Positions 3,763 through 19,288 of a stretch of 64,000 bases of DNA are shown piece by piece. Below the pieces are notes generated by a model, which was given only the letters and a program-made list of their open reading frames with translations, made no database searches and was not told the origin of the DNA. The DNA comes from Candidatus Magasanikiibacteriota bacterium (GTDB lineage: Bacteria > Patescibacteriota > Patescibacteriia > Magasanikbacterales > GWA2-37-8): assembly GCA_943357105.1 (NCBI GenBank), contig CALRGC010000001.1, forward strand, positions 17,045-81,044, written 5' to 3'. Each line of letters starts with the position of its first letter. Position 1 is the stretch's first letter. A program made the position numbers and the translations under genes.

Positions 3763-3784
3763 AGTGTGTTCAAGTATCACGCCT

Positions 3785-3950
3785 GAGAAGACATTTGGCA
3801 ATTTTTACCTGATAAAAGTTCGCATAATTGGCTATAAATTTTCGTTACGGCTCTAAGGGTAGAGCCGTTGCCCTGACGGGCACCACGAAAATTTACTTAC
3901 GCCAATTAGGGGCTCACTTTTATGCGGTAAAAATTGCCAAATGTCTTCTC
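3785..3950. repeat. Structured repeat family 1, copy 1: conserved ~130 bp core inside a 25-bp perfect copy-specific inverted repeat
   Basis: Terminal IR gagaagacatttggcaatttttacc / ggtaaaaattgccaaatgtcttctc; core is about 88% identical to 17006-17135; paired positions covary between the two copies. Confidence 0.8.
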
Positions 3951-10020: not shown

Positions 10021-10728
10021 ATGTATTCCTTTGTTCTCAAGCGTTCTGATTTGCGTGAGCAGGACCAAATAGTGACCCTGTATACTTTGGAAAAAGGCAA
10101 AGTGGACGCTTTGGCGCGCGGGGTAAAAAAAATACTTAGCAAAAACTCGGCCTATCTGTTGCCGGTTTTTTTGATTGATGCCGAAGTGTTGTCCGGCAAA
10201 GAAGTAAATCATCTTACCAAGGCTGTGCCGGTATTTGTCTATAAAAATATTTTGGAGGATTTGAGTAAAATGAGTTTATTGCAAACGGTTTTCAAATGGG
10301 TAAATATTTTGACCAAGTACGAGCGCGAACCAAAAATTTTTCTTTTGATAAAAAGTTGGTTGGAATTTTTGGATGCTACGGATAAAGTGGAAACGGCTTT
10401 GGCGTATGGATTTCTGGGAAATATTTTAACGCATTTGGGGTTTGCGCCTGAGCTCGACAATTGTATTTTTTGTCAGAATAAAAATAATTTAGTGGCTTTT
10501 TATCCGGCCGGTGGCGGGGTGGTTTGTAAAAATTGTTTTTTGCTCAAGAGGCAGGCGGACAATAAAATTTATCCACTTCGAGCCATAGATTTACAGGCTA
10601 TGAGCTTGCTTTTCGCCAGTAATTGGCAAAAAATTCTGAGTCATAATACCGAGATTGCCAATCGGTTGGTATTTTTATATGGGCAATATCACAGTGAGCG
10701 AAAGTTGAATAAAATTAAACTTTTTTAG
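10021..10728 (+). CDS. recO: DNA repair protein RecO
   Basis: 235 aa; OB-fold N-terminus; C-terminal zinc motif CIFCQ...CKNC. Confidence 0.75.
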   Translation: MYSFVLKRSDLREQDQIVTLYTLEKGKVDALARGVKKILSKNSAYLLPVFLIDAEVLSGKEVNHLTKAVPVFVYKNILEDLSKMSLLQTVFKWVNILTKYEREPKIFLLIKSWLEFLDATDKVETALAYGFLGNILTHLGFAPELDNCIFCQNKNNLVAFYPAGGGVVCKNCFLLKRQADNKIYPLRAIDLQAMSLLFASNWQKILSHNTEIANRLVFLYGQYHSERKLNKIKLF

Positions 10729-10803: not shown

Positions 10804-10812
10804 TTGAATTTT

Positions 10813-11901
10813 ATGCAACCGTATATTCCAGAGTCCCTGCCACTCAAAGAGTTAAATTGGGATAAGTATGTTTCTCTGATAGGCAAAGCTAATGCAGAAG
10901 TAGCCAGATTTGATGGTTTGCTACAAGGAATGCCAAATCCAGAAGTTTTGTTGTCGCCTCTTACTATGCAAGAAGCGGTTTTATCTTCCAAAATTGAAGG
11001 TACTATGGCATCTTTAAAGGATGTTTTAGAGTTTGAAGCTGATCCGCAAAAGAAAACAGAAAAATATGATGATATTCAAGAAGTTTTAAATTATAGAAAG
11101 GCAATGCGTTTTTCAGTAAAGGAAATGGAAACCCTGCCTCTGGTTAATAGGCTTATAAAAAATGTACATTCAATATTATTAGACAGTGTTCGCGGACAAA
11201 ATAAACAACCGGGTAGTTTTCGTAGTGGTCAAGTACATATTGGTAAACCAGGGAGTACCCTGGAAACCGCCACGTATGTTCCTCCTGTTCCAAATACAGT
11301 ATCGGATTGTATGAATAATTTGGAAAAGTATTTTCATTATGATGAAAAAGATTTTTTAGTCCAACTGGCCATCATTCATGGACAATTTGAAATTATTCAT
11401 CCGTTTTGGGACGGGAACGGTCGTATTGGTAGAATATTATTACCATTATTTTTATATTACAAAAAAGTTTTATCTACACCAATGTTCTATTTGAGCGCCT
11501 ATTTTGAATCTCACAGAGAAGAATACTATGATAAATTATTACATGTATCCAAGGATAAAGATTGGGATAGTTGGATTATTTATTTTTTACAAGCAATTAT
11601 AGAACAGTCACGAATAAATATAAAAAAGGCTACCGCAATCCATGCTCTGTATGATTCAAAAAAAGAAGAAATAATGAATCTTACCAACTCAAAGTACGCT
11701 ATTAAAACTTTAGATTTTATTTTTAGCTATCCTATTTTTAATAGCACCAATTTTATTAAAACATCCAAAATACCAAAACCTAGTGCTATGAGGGCTTTGT
11801 CGGCTTTAGAGAAAGGTGGTTTATTGAAGAAGATTCATGGTGGTTCCGGTAGAAAACCAGCCACCTATGTATTTGCTAAGTTGTTATCCATAGTTGGGTA
11901 G
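10813..11901 (+). CDS. fic: Fic/Doc family protein (AMPylase-type)
   Basis: Canonical Fic motif HPFWDGNGRIGR; ATG at 10813 preferred over TTG at 10804. Confidence 0.85.
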   Translation: MQPYIPESLPLKELNWDKYVSLIGKANAEVARFDGLLQGMPNPEVLLSPLTMQEAVLSSKIEGTMASLKDVLEFEADPQKKTEKYDDIQEVLNYRKAMRFSVKEMETLPLVNRLIKNVHSILLDSVRGQNKQPGSFRSGQVHIGKPGSTLETATYVPPVPNTVSDCMNNLEKYFHYDEKDFLVQLAIIHGQFEIIHPFWDGNGRIGRILLPLFLYYKKVLSTPMFYLSAYFESHREEYYDKLLHVSKDKDWDSWIIYFLQAIIEQSRINIKKATAIHALYDSKKEEIMNLTNSKYAIKTLDFIFSYPIFNSTNFIKTSKIPKPSAMRALSALEKGGLLKKIHGGSGRKPATYVFAKLLSIVG

Positions 11902-11919
11902 TAGTGTATCATGTAATCA

Positions 11920-11997
11920 ACACTAAATATCTTGTGTATCAAATATTGAAATAAATGACACACTAAATATCTTGTGTATCAAATGGCATATTTAGTA
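11920..11997. repeat. Two 25-bp direct repeats (acactaaatatcttgtgtatcaaat) 40 bp apart, plus inverted half-sites (atatttagt)
   Basis: Exact 25-mer at 11920-11944 and 11960-11984; reverse-complement half-sites at 11988-12010. Confidence 0.7.
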
Positions 11998-12175
11998 TCT
12001 TAGTGGCTATATTTAGCCATTATTTTATTTGAGTTGAGAATTAGAGGACAACAGGAAGTTCGTTTAATTTATACATTCCATAGTAATAAAGCTATAGTTT
12101 TGCACGGATTTTTGAAAAAGTCTCAAAAGATTCCGCAAAAGGAAATTGCTATAGCACAGAAAAAATTATTTTTAC

Positions 12176-12210
12176 TTGACATGGTATAACATATATGTTA
12201 TATTAAATAT
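12176..12210 (+). promoter_or_regulatory. promoter TTGACA-17-TATATT upstream of the XRE gene
   Basis: ttgacatggtataacatatatgttatatt. Confidence 0.5.
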
Positions 12211-12212
12211 GT

Positions 12213-12488
12213 ATGAAATTATATACCAAAATTAAAAGTCAACTTCTTAAAGATAAGCTAACTCGTAAGGCCTATAAAGACCTGGGTGTGGAATTTATGT
12301 TAGCACAAATGGTAATCGAGAAACGCCTTGCCAAGGGATTTACTCAAGCCACTTTGGCCCATAAATTAGGCACTAAGCAGTCCGCAATCGCGAGGCTTGA
12401 ATCTGGTAATTATAACCCGTCCCTAGCCTTTATGGAAAAAATTGCTAAGGCGCTAGATACAAAATTGAAAATTTCTCTAGTAAAATAA
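12213..12488 (+). CDS. XRE-family helix-turn-helix transcriptional regulator
   Basis: 91 aa; HTH LAQMVIEKRLAKGFTQATLAHKLGTKQSAIARLESG. Confidence 0.8.
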   Translation: MKLYTKIKSQLLKDKLTRKAYKDLGVEFMLAQMVIEKRLAKGFTQATLAHKLGTKQSAIARLESGNYNPSLAFMEKIAKALDTKLKISLVK

Positions 12489-12600: not shown

Positions 12601-13893
12601 ATGAATATCCTTATTAAAGAAATTTCCAAACATGTCGGCGAGACCGTGACTATCAAAGGCTGGCTCTACAACAAACGCAGTAGCGGGCCAATCGCCTTCC
12701 TGGAATTGCGTGATGGTTTTGGGTTTGTGCAGGGTGTGGCGGTGCAAAACACTCTGGCTCCGGAAGTGTGGCAGGCTTGTGAAGATGTGACTCAGGAGTC
12801 GTCTATTGAAGTGTCCGGTGAAGTCACCAAACATCCAAAAAAAGAAAATGTTTTTGAATTGCAGATAAAAGATTTTAAGATTTTGCAAAAGGCCGTGGAT
12901 TATCCGATAGCGCACAAAGAGCATGGTCCGGATTTTCTCATGGACAATCGTCATCTGTGGCTACGTAGCAAACGCCAGTGGGCGATTTTGCGCGTGCGTG
13001 ACGCGGTGATTATGGCGATCAATGAATATTTGCATCAGCAGAATTTTATCAAGACCGATTCACCGGTTTTCACGCCCAATGCTTGTGAAGGTACGACCAC
13101 ACTTTTTGCCGTGCCATATTTTGATCTGGGCGAAGCGTTTCTTTCTCAGTCCGGTCAGCTCTATATTGAGGCGGCGATTGCGTCGGTGGGCCGCTGTTAT
13201 GATTTTGGTCCGGTGTTTCGCGCGGAAAAAAGTAAGACCAAACGCCATCTCACTGAATTTTGGATGATGGATGCCGAGGGCGCGTTTGTGGAACATGAAG
13301 AAAATTTGAAAATTCAAGAAGGTTTGGTGCGTCATATTGTGCGCTATTGTTTGGAACATTGTATGGAGGAACTCATTATCTTGGAACGCAATATTGAAAA
13401 TCTCAAAAAAGCCGACGCTCCGTTTACGTGCTATACTTATGATGAAGCGATAGTAAAATTAAACGCGATGGGTAGCGATATTAAATATGGTGAAGATTTG
13501 GGCAATGATGATGAAGGACTGCTGACCAAAGATTCGGAAGTGCCGGTCTTTATCGAAAAATGGCCAAAGAGTATTAAACCATTTTATATGAAACGATCGG
13601 CGGAAAATCCAGATTTGGTTTACAATGATGATTTGATTGCTACTGAAGGTGGCGGTGAATTGATCGGTGGTAGTCAGCGTGAAGATGATATTGAATTATT
13701 GATTGCTTGCATCAAAGCCGAAGGACTAAATGAAGCGGACTATAGCTGGTATACAGATCTGCGCAAATATGGCAGTGTGCCACATTCCGGATTTGGTATT
13801 GGGCTAGAGCGCGCGGTGCGCTGGATCACCGGTGTGGAGCATATTCGCGAATGTATTCCGTTCCCACGTACCATCAGCAGATTGAAACCATAA
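12601..13893 (+). CDS. asnS: class IIb aminoacyl-tRNA synthetase, asparaginyl (or archaeal-type aspartyl)-tRNA ligase
   Basis: 430 aa; N-terminal OB anticodon-binding domain; class II motifs (FRAE, GSQRE, GFGIGLER). Confidence 0.8.
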   Translation: MNILIKEISKHVGETVTIKGWLYNKRSSGPIAFLELRDGFGFVQGVAVQNTLAPEVWQACEDVTQESSIEVSGEVTKHPKKENVFELQIKDFKILQKAVDYPIAHKEHGPDFLMDNRHLWLRSKRQWAILRVRDAVIMAINEYLHQQNFIKTDSPVFTPNACEGTTTLFAVPYFDLGEAFLSQSGQLYIEAAIASVGRCYDFGPVFRAEKSKTKRHLTEFWMMDAEGAFVEHEENLKIQEGLVRHIVRYCLEHCMEELIILERNIENLKKADAPFTCYTYDEAIVKLNAMGSDIKYGEDLGNDDEGLLTKDSEVPVFIEKWPKSIKPFYMKRSAENPDLVYNDDLIATEGGGELIGGSQREDDIELLIACIKAEGLNEADYSWYTDLRKYGSVPHSGFGIGLERAVRWITGVEHIRECIPFPRTISRLKP

Positions 13894-13902
13894 AATTAAA
13901 AT

Positions 13903-13940
13903 AAAAAATCACTCGATTATTTCGGGTGATTTTATTTTTT
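13903..13940 (+). terminator. intrinsic terminator after asnS
   Basis: atcactcga-ttatt-tcgggtgat stem followed by a T-tract. Confidence 0.7.
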
Positions 13941-14100
13941 ACCTTTTCGTCCTGAAAAAATATTTTGGACTCATCAGTGACAGCGTTACTGTCAGAAGGT
14001 GTGGAGAATGGGCAGTCATTCTCCGGCCCCCTTTTTGTTTTTTAACTTTACCTCCTGGTTAGTTATTATTTTTTGACGTATCGCTCTGCCGGCGATCGTC

Positions 14101-14481
14101 TTACTGATCCAACTGATCGCAACTCACCGTGATCAAACGGTGTTGGTCGAATTGAGTCCCGCCGCTGAGATCGTAGTTGAGGCTGAGTTGGTTGAGGATC
14201 ACGAGGTGCTCTCTTGGTCCCTGAGAAAAAACCGTTTCACCGGCTTGCTTGGTGCATGGGGAGAAGAAGCGCCCAGGCGTCCCATTGATATTGGGACAGG
14301 ATTGCTCCAAGATCGTATGTTGAGCGGTGACGCCTTTGGCGATACCGATCGCATTGATATCACGGAGCTTCAGACCAGCAGTTTCGCACCGTCGTACCAA
14401 TTCGCTTTCGGTGATGCACTCCAGAGCCAGTTTGTTCAGATCTGCCTTGTTCATTGTTTCCTTGTCGTCCGTTTTGCCCAC
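14101..14481 (-). CDS. hypothetical protein in a GC-elevated (~50%) segment; strand and start uncertain
   Basis: 126-aa ORF with GTG start; internal ATG has an AAGGA RBS; an overlapping plus-strand ORF 14140-14541 is equally possible. Confidence 0.3.
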   Translation of the reverse strand: MGKTDDKETMNKADLNKLALECITESELVRRCETAGLKLRDINAIGIAKGVTAQHTILEQSCPNINGTPGRFFSPCTKQAGETVFSQGPREHLVILNQLSLNYDLSGGTQFDQHRLITVSCDQLDQ

Positions 14482-14609
14482 GGAACCGGGGAAAGAGCGT
14501 TGCTGAAATTAGGCCTCAGCCGACTGTCTACTCTAAAATAGATAATCGGTTAGTGTCTAACTTATGGCAGATAATATCTTCTATTTTTATGTTTGTCAAC
14601 CCTGTTCGT

Positions 14610-15182
14610 TTATTCTTTTTTTAGCGAGATTTTTTTAATAAATTTTTTAGTTTGTTTTGTTATTCTAATAGTGTATTTATCCGCATTTTTTGTTTTTATT
14701 TTATACAAATTAGCCTTAAAATTTAACCGAGCGATCATTTTTAAAACTTCATCGGCTAATTTCGGTATTATTGTTACAAAATTTACCATTATATATCCTC
14801 GATCGGAATAAATGGATCCGTCGGTTTCTATTAGTCCGCGCAGACATTCAATAGAAAATTTTTTATTATTCAATATCCATTTTGGTATTTTAATATTTTG
14901 TTTATGTTTCGGCCCATTATTTGCTTTCCAGCCAAGCAATTTTTCCCATTGATTGGAATAACAGCTGATATCGCAACAATTTTGTTTTCTGGTGACTATA
15001 GAAATTTTATTTTTAGACATTATTTCTCGTATAACTTCAATAATCCTTTGTCGCAATTTAGGATATTTATTATCACAAGTAATCCGTAGTCGTACGGCGC
15101 GTCCGTTGGGATTAGAAAGATTACCGTCGCCAATGGCGAGGCCTATTAGATAAGCTAGTTTACCCCTCCTAGTTTGAAGCAT
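14610..15182 (-). CDS. LAGLIDADG-family homing endonuclease (two motifs), free-standing, starting 3 nt after tRNA-Leu
   Basis: Motifs LIGLAIGDGNL and LRGLIETDGSI; the annotated ORF extension to 15242 overlaps the tRNA, so the internal ATG at 15182 was chosen. Confidence 0.7.
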   Translation of the reverse strand: MLQTRRGKLAYLIGLAIGDGNLSNPNGRAVRLRITCDNKYPKLRQRIIEVIREIMSKNKISIVTRKQNCCDISCYSNQWEKLLGWKANNGPKHKQNIKIPKWILNNKKFSIECLRGLIETDGSIYSDRGYIMVNFVTIIPKLADEVLKMIARLNFKANLYKIKTKNADKYTIRITKQTKKFIKKISLKKE

Positions 15183-15185
15183 ATT

Positions 15186-15270
15186 TGGTGCCGATGGTGG
15201 GACTTGAACCCACAAACCCGAAGGCACATGATTTTGAGTCATGCATGTTTACCAATTTCATCACATCGGC
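15186..15270 (-). tRNA. tRNA-Leu (anticodon CAA), long variable arm, CCA encoded
   Basis: Cloverleaf: acceptor GCCGATG/CATCGGC; anticodon loop CTCAAAA; T-loop GGTTCAAGTCC. Confidence 0.8.
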
Positions 15271-15325
15271 GCGGTTGCAACTCAATATTGCCAGCTAATT
15301 ATAGTAAATCTTTTGTTTTTTGTCA

Positions 15326-15352
15326 ACCTTATGATATAATATTGCTACTAAT
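15326..15352 (+). promoter_or_regulatory. promoter TTGTCA-15-TATAAT for parA
   Basis: ttgtcaaccttatgatataat. Confidence 0.5.
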
Positions 15353-15358
15353 AATTTT

Positions 15359-16126
15359 ATGTCTGTAGTGATCTCTGTAGTCAACCAAAAAGGCGGAGTG
15401 GGTAAGACTACTTCGGCCGTAAATCTCGCGGCCGGTCTCGCGGAAGCGGGTAAATTTGTGCTCCTTGTCGACCTAGATCCGCAGGGAAATGCCACTTCGG
15501 GACTGGGAATAAAATATCGTGAGCTGGCCAGTGGGCTCTATAATGCGCTGATGGGTCAGGCGCGCGTGCATGATGTGATTGCCAATACTTTGCATACCGG
15601 ATTGCGCGTGGTGCCAGCTACCGCCGACTTGGCAGGCGCCAATGTGGAGTTGGTGAGCGTGGATGGTCGGGAGCGCAAGCTGTCGGATCTGCTCGCTGAG
15701 GTGCGACATGCCTATGATTATGTGATTATTGATTGTCCGCCATCGCTTGGTATTCTTACGCTCAATGGTTTGGTGGCGGCGGACTACATCCTTATTCCAG
15801 TACAAGCCGAATATTACGCGCTCGAAGGTTTGGAACAACTTTTGAAAACTGTAGATTTGGTTCGTGAAAATATTAAGCCGGAATTAAATGTGCTGGGCGC
15901 GATTCTCACCATGTTTGATAGCCGCAATAAACTATCCGAAGAAGTAATGGGTGAACTATATAAATTTTTTCCAAATAATATTTTTCGTTCGGTCATTCCC
16001 CGCACCGTCCGACTGGCTGAAGCGCCCAGTTATGGAAAAAGTATTTTTCACTACGAACCAAAAGGCAAAGGCGCGAAAGCGTATGAGCGCCTCACGCGCG
16101 AAATTTTAGATTTATTTGAAAAATAA
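15359..16126 (+). CDS. parA: chromosome partitioning ATPase ParA/Soj
   Basis: Deviant Walker A KGGVGKTT. Confidence 0.9.
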   Translation: MSVVISVVNQKGGVGKTTSAVNLAAGLAEAGKFVLLVDLDPQGNATSGLGIKYRELASGLYNALMGQARVHDVIANTLHTGLRVVPATADLAGANVELVSVDGRERKLSDLLAEVRHAYDYVIIDCPPSLGILTLNGLVAADYILIPVQAEYYALEGLEQLLKTVDLVRENIKPELNVLGAILTMFDSRNKLSEEVMGELYKFFPNNIFRSVIPRTVRLAEAPSYGKSIFHYEPKGKGAKAYERLTREILDLFEK

Positions 16127-18349: not shown

Positions 18350-19288
18350 TCAAAACAAATCGCTGATTGAATCGCCGTCGTGGGTACGGCGAACGGCCTT
18401 GGCGAAGAGGCCGGCGACCGACACGACCTCGAGCTTGTCACTCACCTTCCCTTTCAAGGGGATGGTGTCGCTGACGAGCACCCGCTCGATGATGCTCTGG
18501 TTGATGCGGTCGATGGCCGGTCCAGAGAGGACCCCGTGGGTGGCCACGACCCGGACCGACAAGGCCCCGCGGTCCATGACGAACTTGGCGGCTTCCACGA
18601 TGGTCCCGCCCGTAGCAATTTCGTCATCCACGATGATCGCGTGCAGGCCACTGACATCCCCGATGAGGTTGGTGGCCGTCGCCTTGTCGTCGTCGCCGTA
18701 GCGGCGTTTGTCCACGACCGCGACTGGAAGTTGCAGACGATTGGCGAATTTGCCAATGTCCTTTGTTTCTCCCACATCGCCGGCGACCAGCACACAACCT
18801 TCCAGCTTCCACTGCTTCTTCATGTACTCGCAGAGCGTCGGCGCTCCCACCAGGTGATCGGTCGGGATGCGGAAGAAACCCTGGATCTGCGGGGAATGCA
18901 AGTCCATCATCATCACTCGATTGGCGCCAGCTGTATGCAGGAGATCGGCCATCAGGCGCGCCGTGATCGAGATCCGGGGCTTGTCCTTCTTGTCGGAGCG
19001 AGCATAGAAGTAGTAGGGCATGACGACCGTGATCCGATTCGCCGACGCGTGTTTGAGGGCGTCGACAGCGATGAGCATTTCCACAATGCCGTCGCTGACC
19101 GGAGGGGCCATGGTCTGGATGTAGAAGACATCACAGCCGCGGACATTTTCGCCGATCTGGACCATCAGATTCTCGTTGCTGAAGCGCACCGTCTTGCTCG
19201 GAGTGAGCTTGAGATCCAGATGACCGCAGATGTTCTCAGCGAAATGGGTGTGGCTGCTACCGGAGATGACGCGAATGTTGCCGTTCAT
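18350..19288 (-). CDS. prs: ribose-phosphate pyrophosphokinase (PRPP synthetase) at ~60% GC, atypical for this genome
   Basis: 312 aa full-length Prs; strong GC3 bias; TGA stop; overlapping antisense ORFs are GC artefacts. Confidence 0.9.
   Translation of the reverse strand: MNGNIRVISGSSHTHFAENICGHLDLKLTPSKTVRFSNENLMVQIGENVRGCDVFYIQTMAPPVSDGIVEMLIAVDALKHASANRITVVMPYYFYARSDKKDKPRISITARLMADLLHTAGANRVMMMDLHSPQIQGFFRIPTDHLVGAPTLCEYMKKQWKLEGCVLVAGDVGETKDIGKFANRLQLPVAVVDKRRYGDDDKATATNLIGDVSGLHAIIVDDEIATGGTIVEAAKFVMDRGALSVRVVATHGVLSGPAIDRINQSIIERVLVSDTIPLKGKVSDKLEVVSVAGLFAKAVRRTHDGDSISDLF

Follow-up and report, generated by a model that had tools for sequence, protein, structure and literature searches.

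T4 SegB is a free-standing GIY-YIG homing endonuclease encoded in the T4 tRNA cluster; its 27-bp site includes the TpsiC stem-loop, and its homing, shown experimentally, carries neighbouring tRNA genes along (PMC2330249). It is the nearest described analogue of the gene considered here, which lies on a 64,000-nucleotide (nt) stretch of Candidatus Magasanikiibacteriota bacterium (assembly GCA_943357105.1, contig CALRGC010000001.1, positions 17,045 to 81,044; this whole stretch is called the window, and its own numbering is used throughout) and encodes a putative free-standing LAGLIDADG homing endonuclease directly behind the gene for tRNA-Leu(CAA). As with SegB, a free-standing endonuclease gene stands beside a tRNA gene, and loci with and without the endonuclease gene tend to differ in the neighbouring tRNA allele as well. 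In contrast to SegB, the predicted enzyme is of the LAGLIDADG rather than the GIY-YIG type, its genome is cellular rather than that of a phage, and its activity and homing are deduced, whereas those of SegB were demonstrated. The presumed sharing of a promoter with the tRNA across a near-zero spacer is likewise a feature not described for SegB.

In bacteria of the Candidate Phyla Radiation (CPR), LAGLIDADG endonucleases are encoded in insertion sequences and group I introns of rRNA genes (PMC11270868). These enzymes share with the present one the phylum-level hosts, the superfamily and a highly conserved RNA gene as target (a presumed target in the present case), but they are located inside rRNA genes, often in introns, and tRNA is nowhere mentioned in PMC11270868. 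Group I introns in the anticodon loops of tRNAs have also been described (PMC13011429). The searchable literature yielded no LAGLIDADG gene tied to the 3' end of a bacterial tRNA and none linked to a tRNA in CPR. To our knowledge, free-standing LAGLIDADG homing endonucleases are rare outside organelles. In architecture, the closest parallels are compact archaeal single-chain enzymes such as I-DmoI and I-Tsp061I, which are likewise monomers of ~190 amino acids (aa) with two motifs and an acidic residue ending each LAGLIDADG helix; I-DmoI is encoded within an rRNA intron, whereas the gene in the window is free-standing, bacterial and placed behind a tRNA gene.

Compared with these systems, the locus behaves as the seat of a widespread, site-specific selfish gene with an unusual mode of expression, and as something beyond a decayed island. 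The favoured explanation, to which we assign a probability of roughly 0.7, is an intact free-standing homing endonuclease that resides in the 3' flank of tRNA-Leu(CAA), is transcribed from the tRNA promoter and is spread and lost by allele-swapping recombination. That the enzyme cleaves DNA, where it would cut and which way the gene has moved are proposed here from sequence comparison, as are co-transcription with the tRNA and leaderless-type translation.

Layout of the endonuclease gene and tRNA-Leu(CAA)

The features on which the argument rests are the following.

14610-15182, minus strand: predicted gene for a free-standing single-chain LAGLIDADG homing endonuclease of 190 aa (start codon ATG 15182-15180, stop codon TAA 14612-14610)
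15117-15158, minus strand: first LAGLIDADG helix and motif, residues 9-22, LAYLIGLAIGDGNL, with Asp19 (alignment and model)
14808-14846, minus strand: second LAGLIDADG helix and motif, residues 113-125, CLRGLIETDGSIY, with Asp121 (alignment and model)
15183-15185, minus strand: 3-nt spacer, AAT, from the tRNA CCA end to the ATG (direct sequence reading)
15186-15270, minus strand: tRNA-Leu(CAA), 'type W' allele, CCA encoded (ARAGORN and Rfam)
15298-15326, minus strand: sigma-70-type promoter, TTGACA-17 nt-TATAAT, for the tRNA and presumably the endonuclease gene (12/12 consensus)
13908-15296, no strand assigned: block that is variable relative to the closest empty relative, locus L173 (homology break points)

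The original prediction, made from the letters of the sequence alone, had described a double-motif LAGLIDADG open reading frame (ORF) whose ATG begins 3 nt past the CCA of tRNA-Leu(CAA), and this description stands. ARAGORN and Rfam both place the tRNA (63 bits) with its CCA at 15188-15186, the minus-strand junction reads ...GGCACCA-AAT-ATG, and the endonuclease frame is open from 15182 to its TAA. The motifs LIGLAIGDGNL and LRGLIETDGSI occupy residues 12-22 and 114-124 of the 190-aa protein, which matches Pfam LAGLIDADG_3 (PF14528) with E = 1e-12. A 210-aa ORF listed from 15242 is the same frame read back through the tRNA, and the excess length of many over-long database homologues, for example at the N-terminus of homologue P0003, arises from the same read-through artefact. 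Family members are variously annotated as 'hypothetical' or automatically as 'WhiA', or are over-extended by 20-50 spurious residues through the tRNA. The gene is also free-standing, as had been proposed: the tRNA is uninterrupted, and an Rfam search over 13800-15500 at E <= 1 returned no intron, so that an endonuclease encoded by a group I intron is ruled out. In composition, the endonuclease gene (31% GC) is AT-richer than the window (41.6% GC), and across the related loci it is AT-richer than parA in 43 of 43.

Predicted fold and catalytic residues

An AlphaFold2 model built on 46 homologues (pLDDT, the predicted local confidence score, 93.6; pTM, the predicted template-modelling score, 0.90) shows two helix/beta-hairpin/helix repeats, so that the alpha-beta-beta-alpha-beta-beta-alpha fold is predicted to be present twice in a pseudo-dimeric arrangement. 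The top Foldseek match of this model in the PDB is I-DmoI (template-modelling score 0.73-0.77, ~20% identity), followed among others by the endonuclease domains of the PI-SceI and TliVMA inteins, I-Tsp061I and I-AniI, with E values of ~1e-9 to 1e-7 for I-DmoI, PI-SceI and I-AniI; WhiA appears only at rank 48. A sequence-profile search against the PDB found no relative at E <= 0.01. Single-chain LAGLIDADG homing endonucleases are site-specific enzymes with long DNA targets of ~20 bp, and in LAGLIDADG enzymes the acidic residue that ends the LAGLIDADG helix is the catalytic position. In the model, D19 and D121 close predicted helices 2-19 (at its C-terminal end) and 107-121, respectively, and both are invariant across the 46 homologues, together with G18 and G20 of the first motif and C113, L114, G116, L117, T120 and G122 of the second. 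Outside the motifs, R28, R31, R33, K92 and Q95 are invariant as well, as are many predicted beta-sheet-face residues, and the family alignment has 41 invariant columns in all. With a dN/dS (ratio of non-synonymous to synonymous substitution rates) of 0.12 against the nearest homologue, in locus L001, the gene is intact and under purifying selection, and its product is probably a catalytically competent single-chain enzyme with two motifs.

The same fold occurs in WhiA and in other domesticated LAGLIDADG proteins. Domesticated LAGLIDADG proteins of the WhiA type have lost the catalytic acidic residues, carry a C-terminal helix-turn-helix (HTH) domain and are present throughout their lineages. 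By contrast, the protein considered here has 190 aa and no C-terminal HTH, keeps both catalytic Asp residues and is sporadic, being absent from five of six close relatives. A domesticated regulator of the WhiA type is ruled out by these invariant Asp residues, the lack of an extra domain and the sporadic presence.

A large family with a fixed genomic address

A word-indexed protein search retrieved 1063 homologues (clusters at 90% identity). The best 120 of these are 54-91% identical to the window's protein and nearly all 188-194 aa long, and the named sources among them are exclusively Patescibacteria/CPR, namely Magasanikbacteria, Falkowbacteria, Uhrbacteria and 'Patescibacteria group'. The edges of the family were probed by an exhaustive search over representatives at 50% identity, in which ~20 representatives with E < 1e-30 formed a tight group whose edge is sharp: identity falls from 44-58% to ~30-37%, the latter to longer LAGLIDADG proteins of 240-300 aa. 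With more than 1000 clusters, compact proteins of ~190 aa and a well-defined candidate target region, the family is attractive as a source of new meganuclease scaffolds.

The genomic position of the gene is nearly constant. In the first nine contexts inspected, it starts 3-30 nt after tRNA-Leu(CAA) and is divergent from parA-parB. A metagenome scan with the family alignment added 80 further loci, and tRNA-Leu(CAA) stands directly upstream on the same strand in 71 of the 73 unique loci with enough upstream sequence, the start codon falling 0-30 nt after the tRNA. This linkage persists in loci that lack an adjacent parAB and in loci with tRNA-Cys or tRNA-Ala ahead of tRNA-Leu. The spacer from tRNA to start codon is mostly 0-17 nt (70 unique related loci), and in L094, L105, L108 and L170 the ATG begins 1 nt past the discriminator base. 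The two exceptions, L107 and L111, have no tRNA-Leu(CAA) ahead of the endonuclease gene. Both carry a GC-rich, structured-looking segment (positions 1-300 of L107 and 1-215 of L111) followed by a promoter-like TTGGAA-17-TACAAT before the gene; in an Rfam search of these upstream segments, no family reached its gathering score. The family is thus large, apparently undescribed and apparently restricted to CPR/Patescibacteria, with an insertion site that appears to be the first few nt after the 3' end of tRNA-Leu(CAA).

Occupied and empty loci among close relatives

A conserved host gene had been considered because the first nine contexts were all alike; as the main explanation it was rejected after sampling by ParB gave empty relatives. 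In this sampling, the closest relatives of the window were collected through their ParB homologues, independently of the endonuclease gene (n = 6), and one of the six proved to be occupied and five empty; the ParB homologues also assign the organism to Candidatus Magasanikbacteria. The occupied relative is the P0289 contig (ParB 87% identical), with the order asnS, 123-aa ORF, 190-aa LAGLIDADG gene and parA. The empty ones are L173/L174 (ParB 95%), L171 (81%), L172 (78%), and L175 and L176 (both 77%). L173 is particularly close to the window (AsnS 96.5%, ParA 96.9%, ParB 94.7% and TsaD 93.6% identical), and its asnS-parA interval holds only a bidirectional terminator and tRNA-Leu(CAA). A presence/absence polymorphism is therefore evident at one and the same site, with the window, L001 and P0289 occupied and L171, L172, L173, L175 and L176 empty. 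A comparison of the asnS-tRNA-Leu-parA locus had been proposed together with the original prediction, and its outcome is that empty sites are common, rather than the block being conserved throughout the lineage.

Empty sites also occur at greater distance. A ParA scan of genome contigs listed at least 80 loci, most of them from unrelated phyla; among the listed matches are at least five CPR loci, more distant from the window, in which tRNA-Leu(CAA) and parA are still arranged together but the endonuclease gene is missing, and three of these five have a terminator hairpin after the tRNA. The empty locus L012 nests among occupied lineages, its ParA being 80% identical to that of L109. The endonuclease gene is not fixed; it is sporadic, and empty sites are common.

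Boundaries of the variable block and exchange of tRNA alleles

The variable block reaches further than the interval between the asnS terminator and the tRNA that had been predicted. Homology between the window and L173 ends at 13907, 14 nt past the asnS stop codon, and restarts at 15297, at the -10 box of the tRNA promoter; since it restarts only there, the tRNA itself lies inside the replaced segment. Within the block are the asnS terminator region, a hammerhead-like motif, two genes (one hypothetical, the other that of the endonuclease) and the tRNA allele with its leader; its counterpart in L173 measures ~0.13 kb and consists of a terminator, a 'type N' tRNA and a leader. Nor is it a uniform compositional island of 1.2 kb, as had been suggested, given GC contents of 31% in the endonuclease gene and 52% in the hypothetical ORF. 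A second pair of loci resolves the endonuclease gene by itself. Occupied L097 and empty L172 share 90 identical nt covering the tRNA, and their homology restarts right after the ORF, at a terminator hairpin that directly follows the tRNA in L172. The difference between the two is an ORF-sized indel (~0.6 kb) at the tRNA 3' end.

These boundaries bear on the view that the block is what decay has left of a prophage or integrase-type genomic island once inserted in the tRNA-Leu gene, which comes close to the tRNA-targeted mobile element of the original prediction. tRNA genes are common integration sites, and the absence of the block from close relatives, which was confirmed, would be expected of such an island. 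The remainder of the comparison speaks against it: the search for att-like repeats that had been proposed, run over 13850-15400, gave only AT-rich chance matches and no direct repeat of the tRNA 3' end; the ORFs of the block are the endonuclease gene and one without a Pfam match, neither of them encoding an integrase or recombinase; the indel between L097 and L172 is the endonuclease ORF alone; the tRNA is a complete alternative allele with no duplicated 3' end; and the gene is intact and under selection. Of the earlier interpretation, the free-standing double-motif gene, its probable co-transcription with the tRNA and the existence of empty sites are supported, whereas decay and integrase-type insertion are not, and an island remnant is considered highly improbable.

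Two tRNA-Leu(CAA) alleles, ~61% identical to each other, circulate in the clade. Type W accompanies the endonuclease gene in the window, L001, L093, L097, L122, L164 and L133 and occurs without it in L172, whereas type N is found in the empty loci L173, L171, L175 and L176, with a type N variant in occupied L091. The ParB tree does not split the loci by allele type, and in ParB the window and L001 are 94-96% identical to L173. Between the window and L001, the tRNA is 100% identical and the endonuclease gene 90.8% identical at the nucleotide level, compared with 83-86.5% for the flanking genes; correspondingly, dS (the synonymous substitution rate) is 0.36 for the endonuclease gene and 0.73-1.07 for parA, parB and tsaD. 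These values suggest that the endonuclease-tRNA segment of the two loci shares a more recent ancestor than its flanks. Similar contrasts are seen elsewhere: in L121 against L128/L130/L142, and in L136/L145 against L165, ParA/ParB are 86-89% identical and the tRNA-Leu(CAA) alleles only 67-70%. Swapping of tRNA-Leu(CAA) alleles seems to be general in endonuclease-bearing CPR lineages, and such recurrent replacement between near-identical genomes bears on DNA exchange among uncultured CPR bacteria.

Allele swapping could also be read as the work of ordinary homologous recombination after DNA uptake, which would exchange a hypervariable asnS/tRNA-Leu/parA interval with the endonuclease gene as a passenger. 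The enzyme would then be inactive, or would act elsewhere, for example on an rRNA gene, and would not drive its own spread. In line with this, the hypothetical gene, a metallophosphoesterase gene, other ORFs and the tRNA allele vary independently here among close relatives, and the adjoining recO-asnS gap is variable too. Such a recombination hotspot gives no account of the placement after tRNA-Leu(CAA) in 71 of 73 loci, even with quite different tRNA neighbours, nor of the invariance of catalytic and surface residues, and we consider it improbable.

Proposed expression from the tRNA promoter

The promoter at 15326-15298 on the minus strand matches the sigma-70 consensus in 12 of 12 positions, is kept in relatives and is the only strong promoter, lying upstream of the tRNA; the 3-nt spacer separating tRNA and ATG is too short for any promoter-like site. 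Since this sole strong promoter precedes the tRNA, and since the L097/L172 pair places the ORF between the tRNA and the tRNA's own terminator, the natural inference is that the endonuclease gene would be co-transcribed with the tRNA, as the original prediction had already read it. Its remark that the spacer leaves no room for a Shine-Dalgarno (SD) sequence is true but uninformative, as an SD-like motif precedes only 4 of the 40 genes in the window. Translation in this organism thus appears to start independently of SD sequences, and leaderless-type translation of the endonuclease mRNA may be expected. The 40 start codons in the window lie in A/T-rich contexts.

Transcripts punctuated by tRNAs are known from mitochondrial tRNA punctuation and, in bacteria, from tRNA-mRNA operons such as the tufB operon, and spacers of 0-17 nt between a tRNA and a start codon are unusual in bacteria. 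The arrangement in the window resembles these transcripts in that the mRNA would lie immediately 3' of the tRNA, and tRNA 3' processing would set the mRNA 5' end. The idea that tRNA processing can generate the 5' end of a bacterial mRNA could be put to the test at this locus.

Proposed cycle of gain and loss, and the case for vertical inheritance

Under the homing explanation, the endonuclease gene, situated between tRNA-Leu(CAA) and its terminator, would be read as a tRNA-mRNA co-transcript, from which maturation of the tRNA 3' end would release an mRNA for SD-less translation whose 5' leader measures no more than 0-20 nt. In related cells whose tRNA-Leu(CAA) locus is endonuclease-free, the enzyme would cut that locus at the tRNA 3' end or close to it, and repair from the occupied copy would install the gene, often co-converting the adjacent tRNA allele. 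The gene would later be lost by deletion or allele replacement. Such a cycle of gain and loss would produce a patchwork of occupied and empty sites among close relatives, and transmission mostly within clades would lead to loose congruence with host markers. If so, the family would be a natural system in which to study how selfish genes persist in CPR genomes, which are tiny and streamlined.

The main rival is a domesticated host protein, that is, an ancient LAGLIDADG gene fixed in the tRNA-Leu(CAA) operon of CPR, inherited vertically with frequent loss in some lineages, and serving a cellular role such as site-specific binding or cleavage of DNA or RNA tied to tRNA-Leu(CAA). Several results weigh against homing, and the first of them are those that favour domestication. 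At depth, conservation of the family is on a par with that of ParA, levelling off at ~59% identity where ParB has ~40%, which is in keeping with the 41 invariant columns and the low dN/dS. Endonuclease distances track ParA+ParB distances (Mantel r = 0.69, a value reached in 0 of 5000 permutations), and a bootstrapped neighbour-joining tree loosely mirrors the host clades, albeit with poor bootstrap support. All of the at least 80 retrieved copies are intact, and no degenerate copies were seen in searches that are biased towards intact genes; viral contigs of IMG/VR, searched with the protein, contained no copies; and the order of gene and tRNA is constant. Other results trouble the homing explanation in themselves. 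No pair with near-identical endonucleases and distant hosts was found among the loci compared. The trailers 3' of the tRNA in empty sites share no common motif, and no target is derivable from sequence; a tRNA feature separating occupied from empty alleles across CPR was also looked for, and none was evident. The tRNA gene is intact in occupied loci, where the enzyme would have to avoid cutting its own genome. The direction of allele replacement fits either course, invasion by the gene with the W allele or their replacement by the N allele, and the occupancy figure rests on six relatives.

Against domestication stand the occupancy of only one of these six relatives, with the near-conspecific L173 cleanly empty, and the invariance of both catalytic Asp residues, unlike in WhiA-type domesticated proteins. 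The gene has a lower dS than its flanks, the tRNA allele next to it has been exchanged, and its GC content is consistently atypical. Within the Magasanikbacteria clade, moreover, identity among the endonucleases is only 58-69%, compared with 82-86% for ParA/ParB. Strong conservation, distances that correlate with those of the hosts and the fact that no pseudogenes were observed leave the domesticated protein with appreciable weight, although we regard it as unlikely.

A bolder form of the homing explanation is that tRNA-Leu(CAA) and the endonuclease gene form a two-part selfish cassette, a bacterial 'cleave-and-rescue' drive, a possibility that we consider rather doubtful. The endonuclease would cut the resident allele of a probably single-copy tRNA gene, the cassette would bring a resistant tRNA allele, and repair would replace the tRNA together with its trailer, while the leaderless mRNA freed by tRNA 3' processing would couple endonuclease dosage to tRNA transcription. 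If true, this would be a cellular LAGLIDADG counterpart of T4 SegB, maintained across much of Patescibacteria, and also a bacterial example of tRNA-punctuated mRNA production.

Neighbouring genes and other features

The second gene of the variable block is described by one further feature.

14101-14454, minus strand: clade-specific hypothetical gene, probably coding, 117 aa from its ATG or 126 aa from a GTG at 14481

A GC-rich ORF at 14101-14481 on the minus strand had been predicted as part of the same unit as the endonuclease gene. The ORF exists and is GC-rich, but it is separate from that unit: it has its own promoter at 14599-14571 on the minus strand, and its homologue in L171, which encodes 116 aa (31% identity, E = 4e-15), stands beside an endonuclease-free type N tRNA. 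The ORF has no Pfam match, and its sole homologue in a set of 5.8 billion proteins is itself. Its substitutions relative to L001 number 28, 9 and 11 at codon positions 3, 1 and 2, and because of this third-position bias it is probably coding. These comparisons point to a fast-evolving, clade-specific gene that constitutes a separate indel from the endonuclease gene. In L001, an in-frame TAA (GAA to TAA, at ~3780-3790) occurs at codon 18 of this gene amid conserved codons, and the L001 copy may be a pseudogene or may start at the next TTG. The ~100-nt leader between the 14599-14571 promoter and the ATG (14455-14560, minus strand) is nearly identical in L001, where the ORF is ~80% identical at the nucleotide level; the leader may be a structured 5' untranslated region, and an Rfam search of it returned nothing.

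The segment 13941-14000 on the minus strand, between the hypothetical gene and the asnS terminator, is a candidate hammerhead ribozyme of type III and falls within the block that L173 lacks. Its CUGAUGA...GAAA core is intact and it has a UC cleavage site, with stems I, II and III of 6, 4 and 5 bp that coincide with the predicted minimum-free-energy fold. The Rfam Hammerhead_3 model scores 22 bits, below the gathering score of 48.5 bits (local E = 0.012), and the core is unique in the window and occurs 0 times in 1.5 Mb of related loci.

A second variable slot adjoins the first, namely the gap between recO (10021-10728) and asnS. In the window, this gap (10804-12488, plus strand) holds a Fic/DOC-family gene (10804-11901), a short ORF and an HTH_3/XRE gene (12213-12488). 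Directly adjoining recO and asnS genes (1704 to 1734) are found in L173, the 95% relative, and on the P0289 contig a reverse-transcriptase (RVT_1) gene precedes asnS. Further along, the ribose-phosphate pyrophosphokinase gene prs (18350-19288, minus strand) has a GC content of 59%, well above that of the window; it is not a recent insertion, since prs occupies the same position in L173 and L176.

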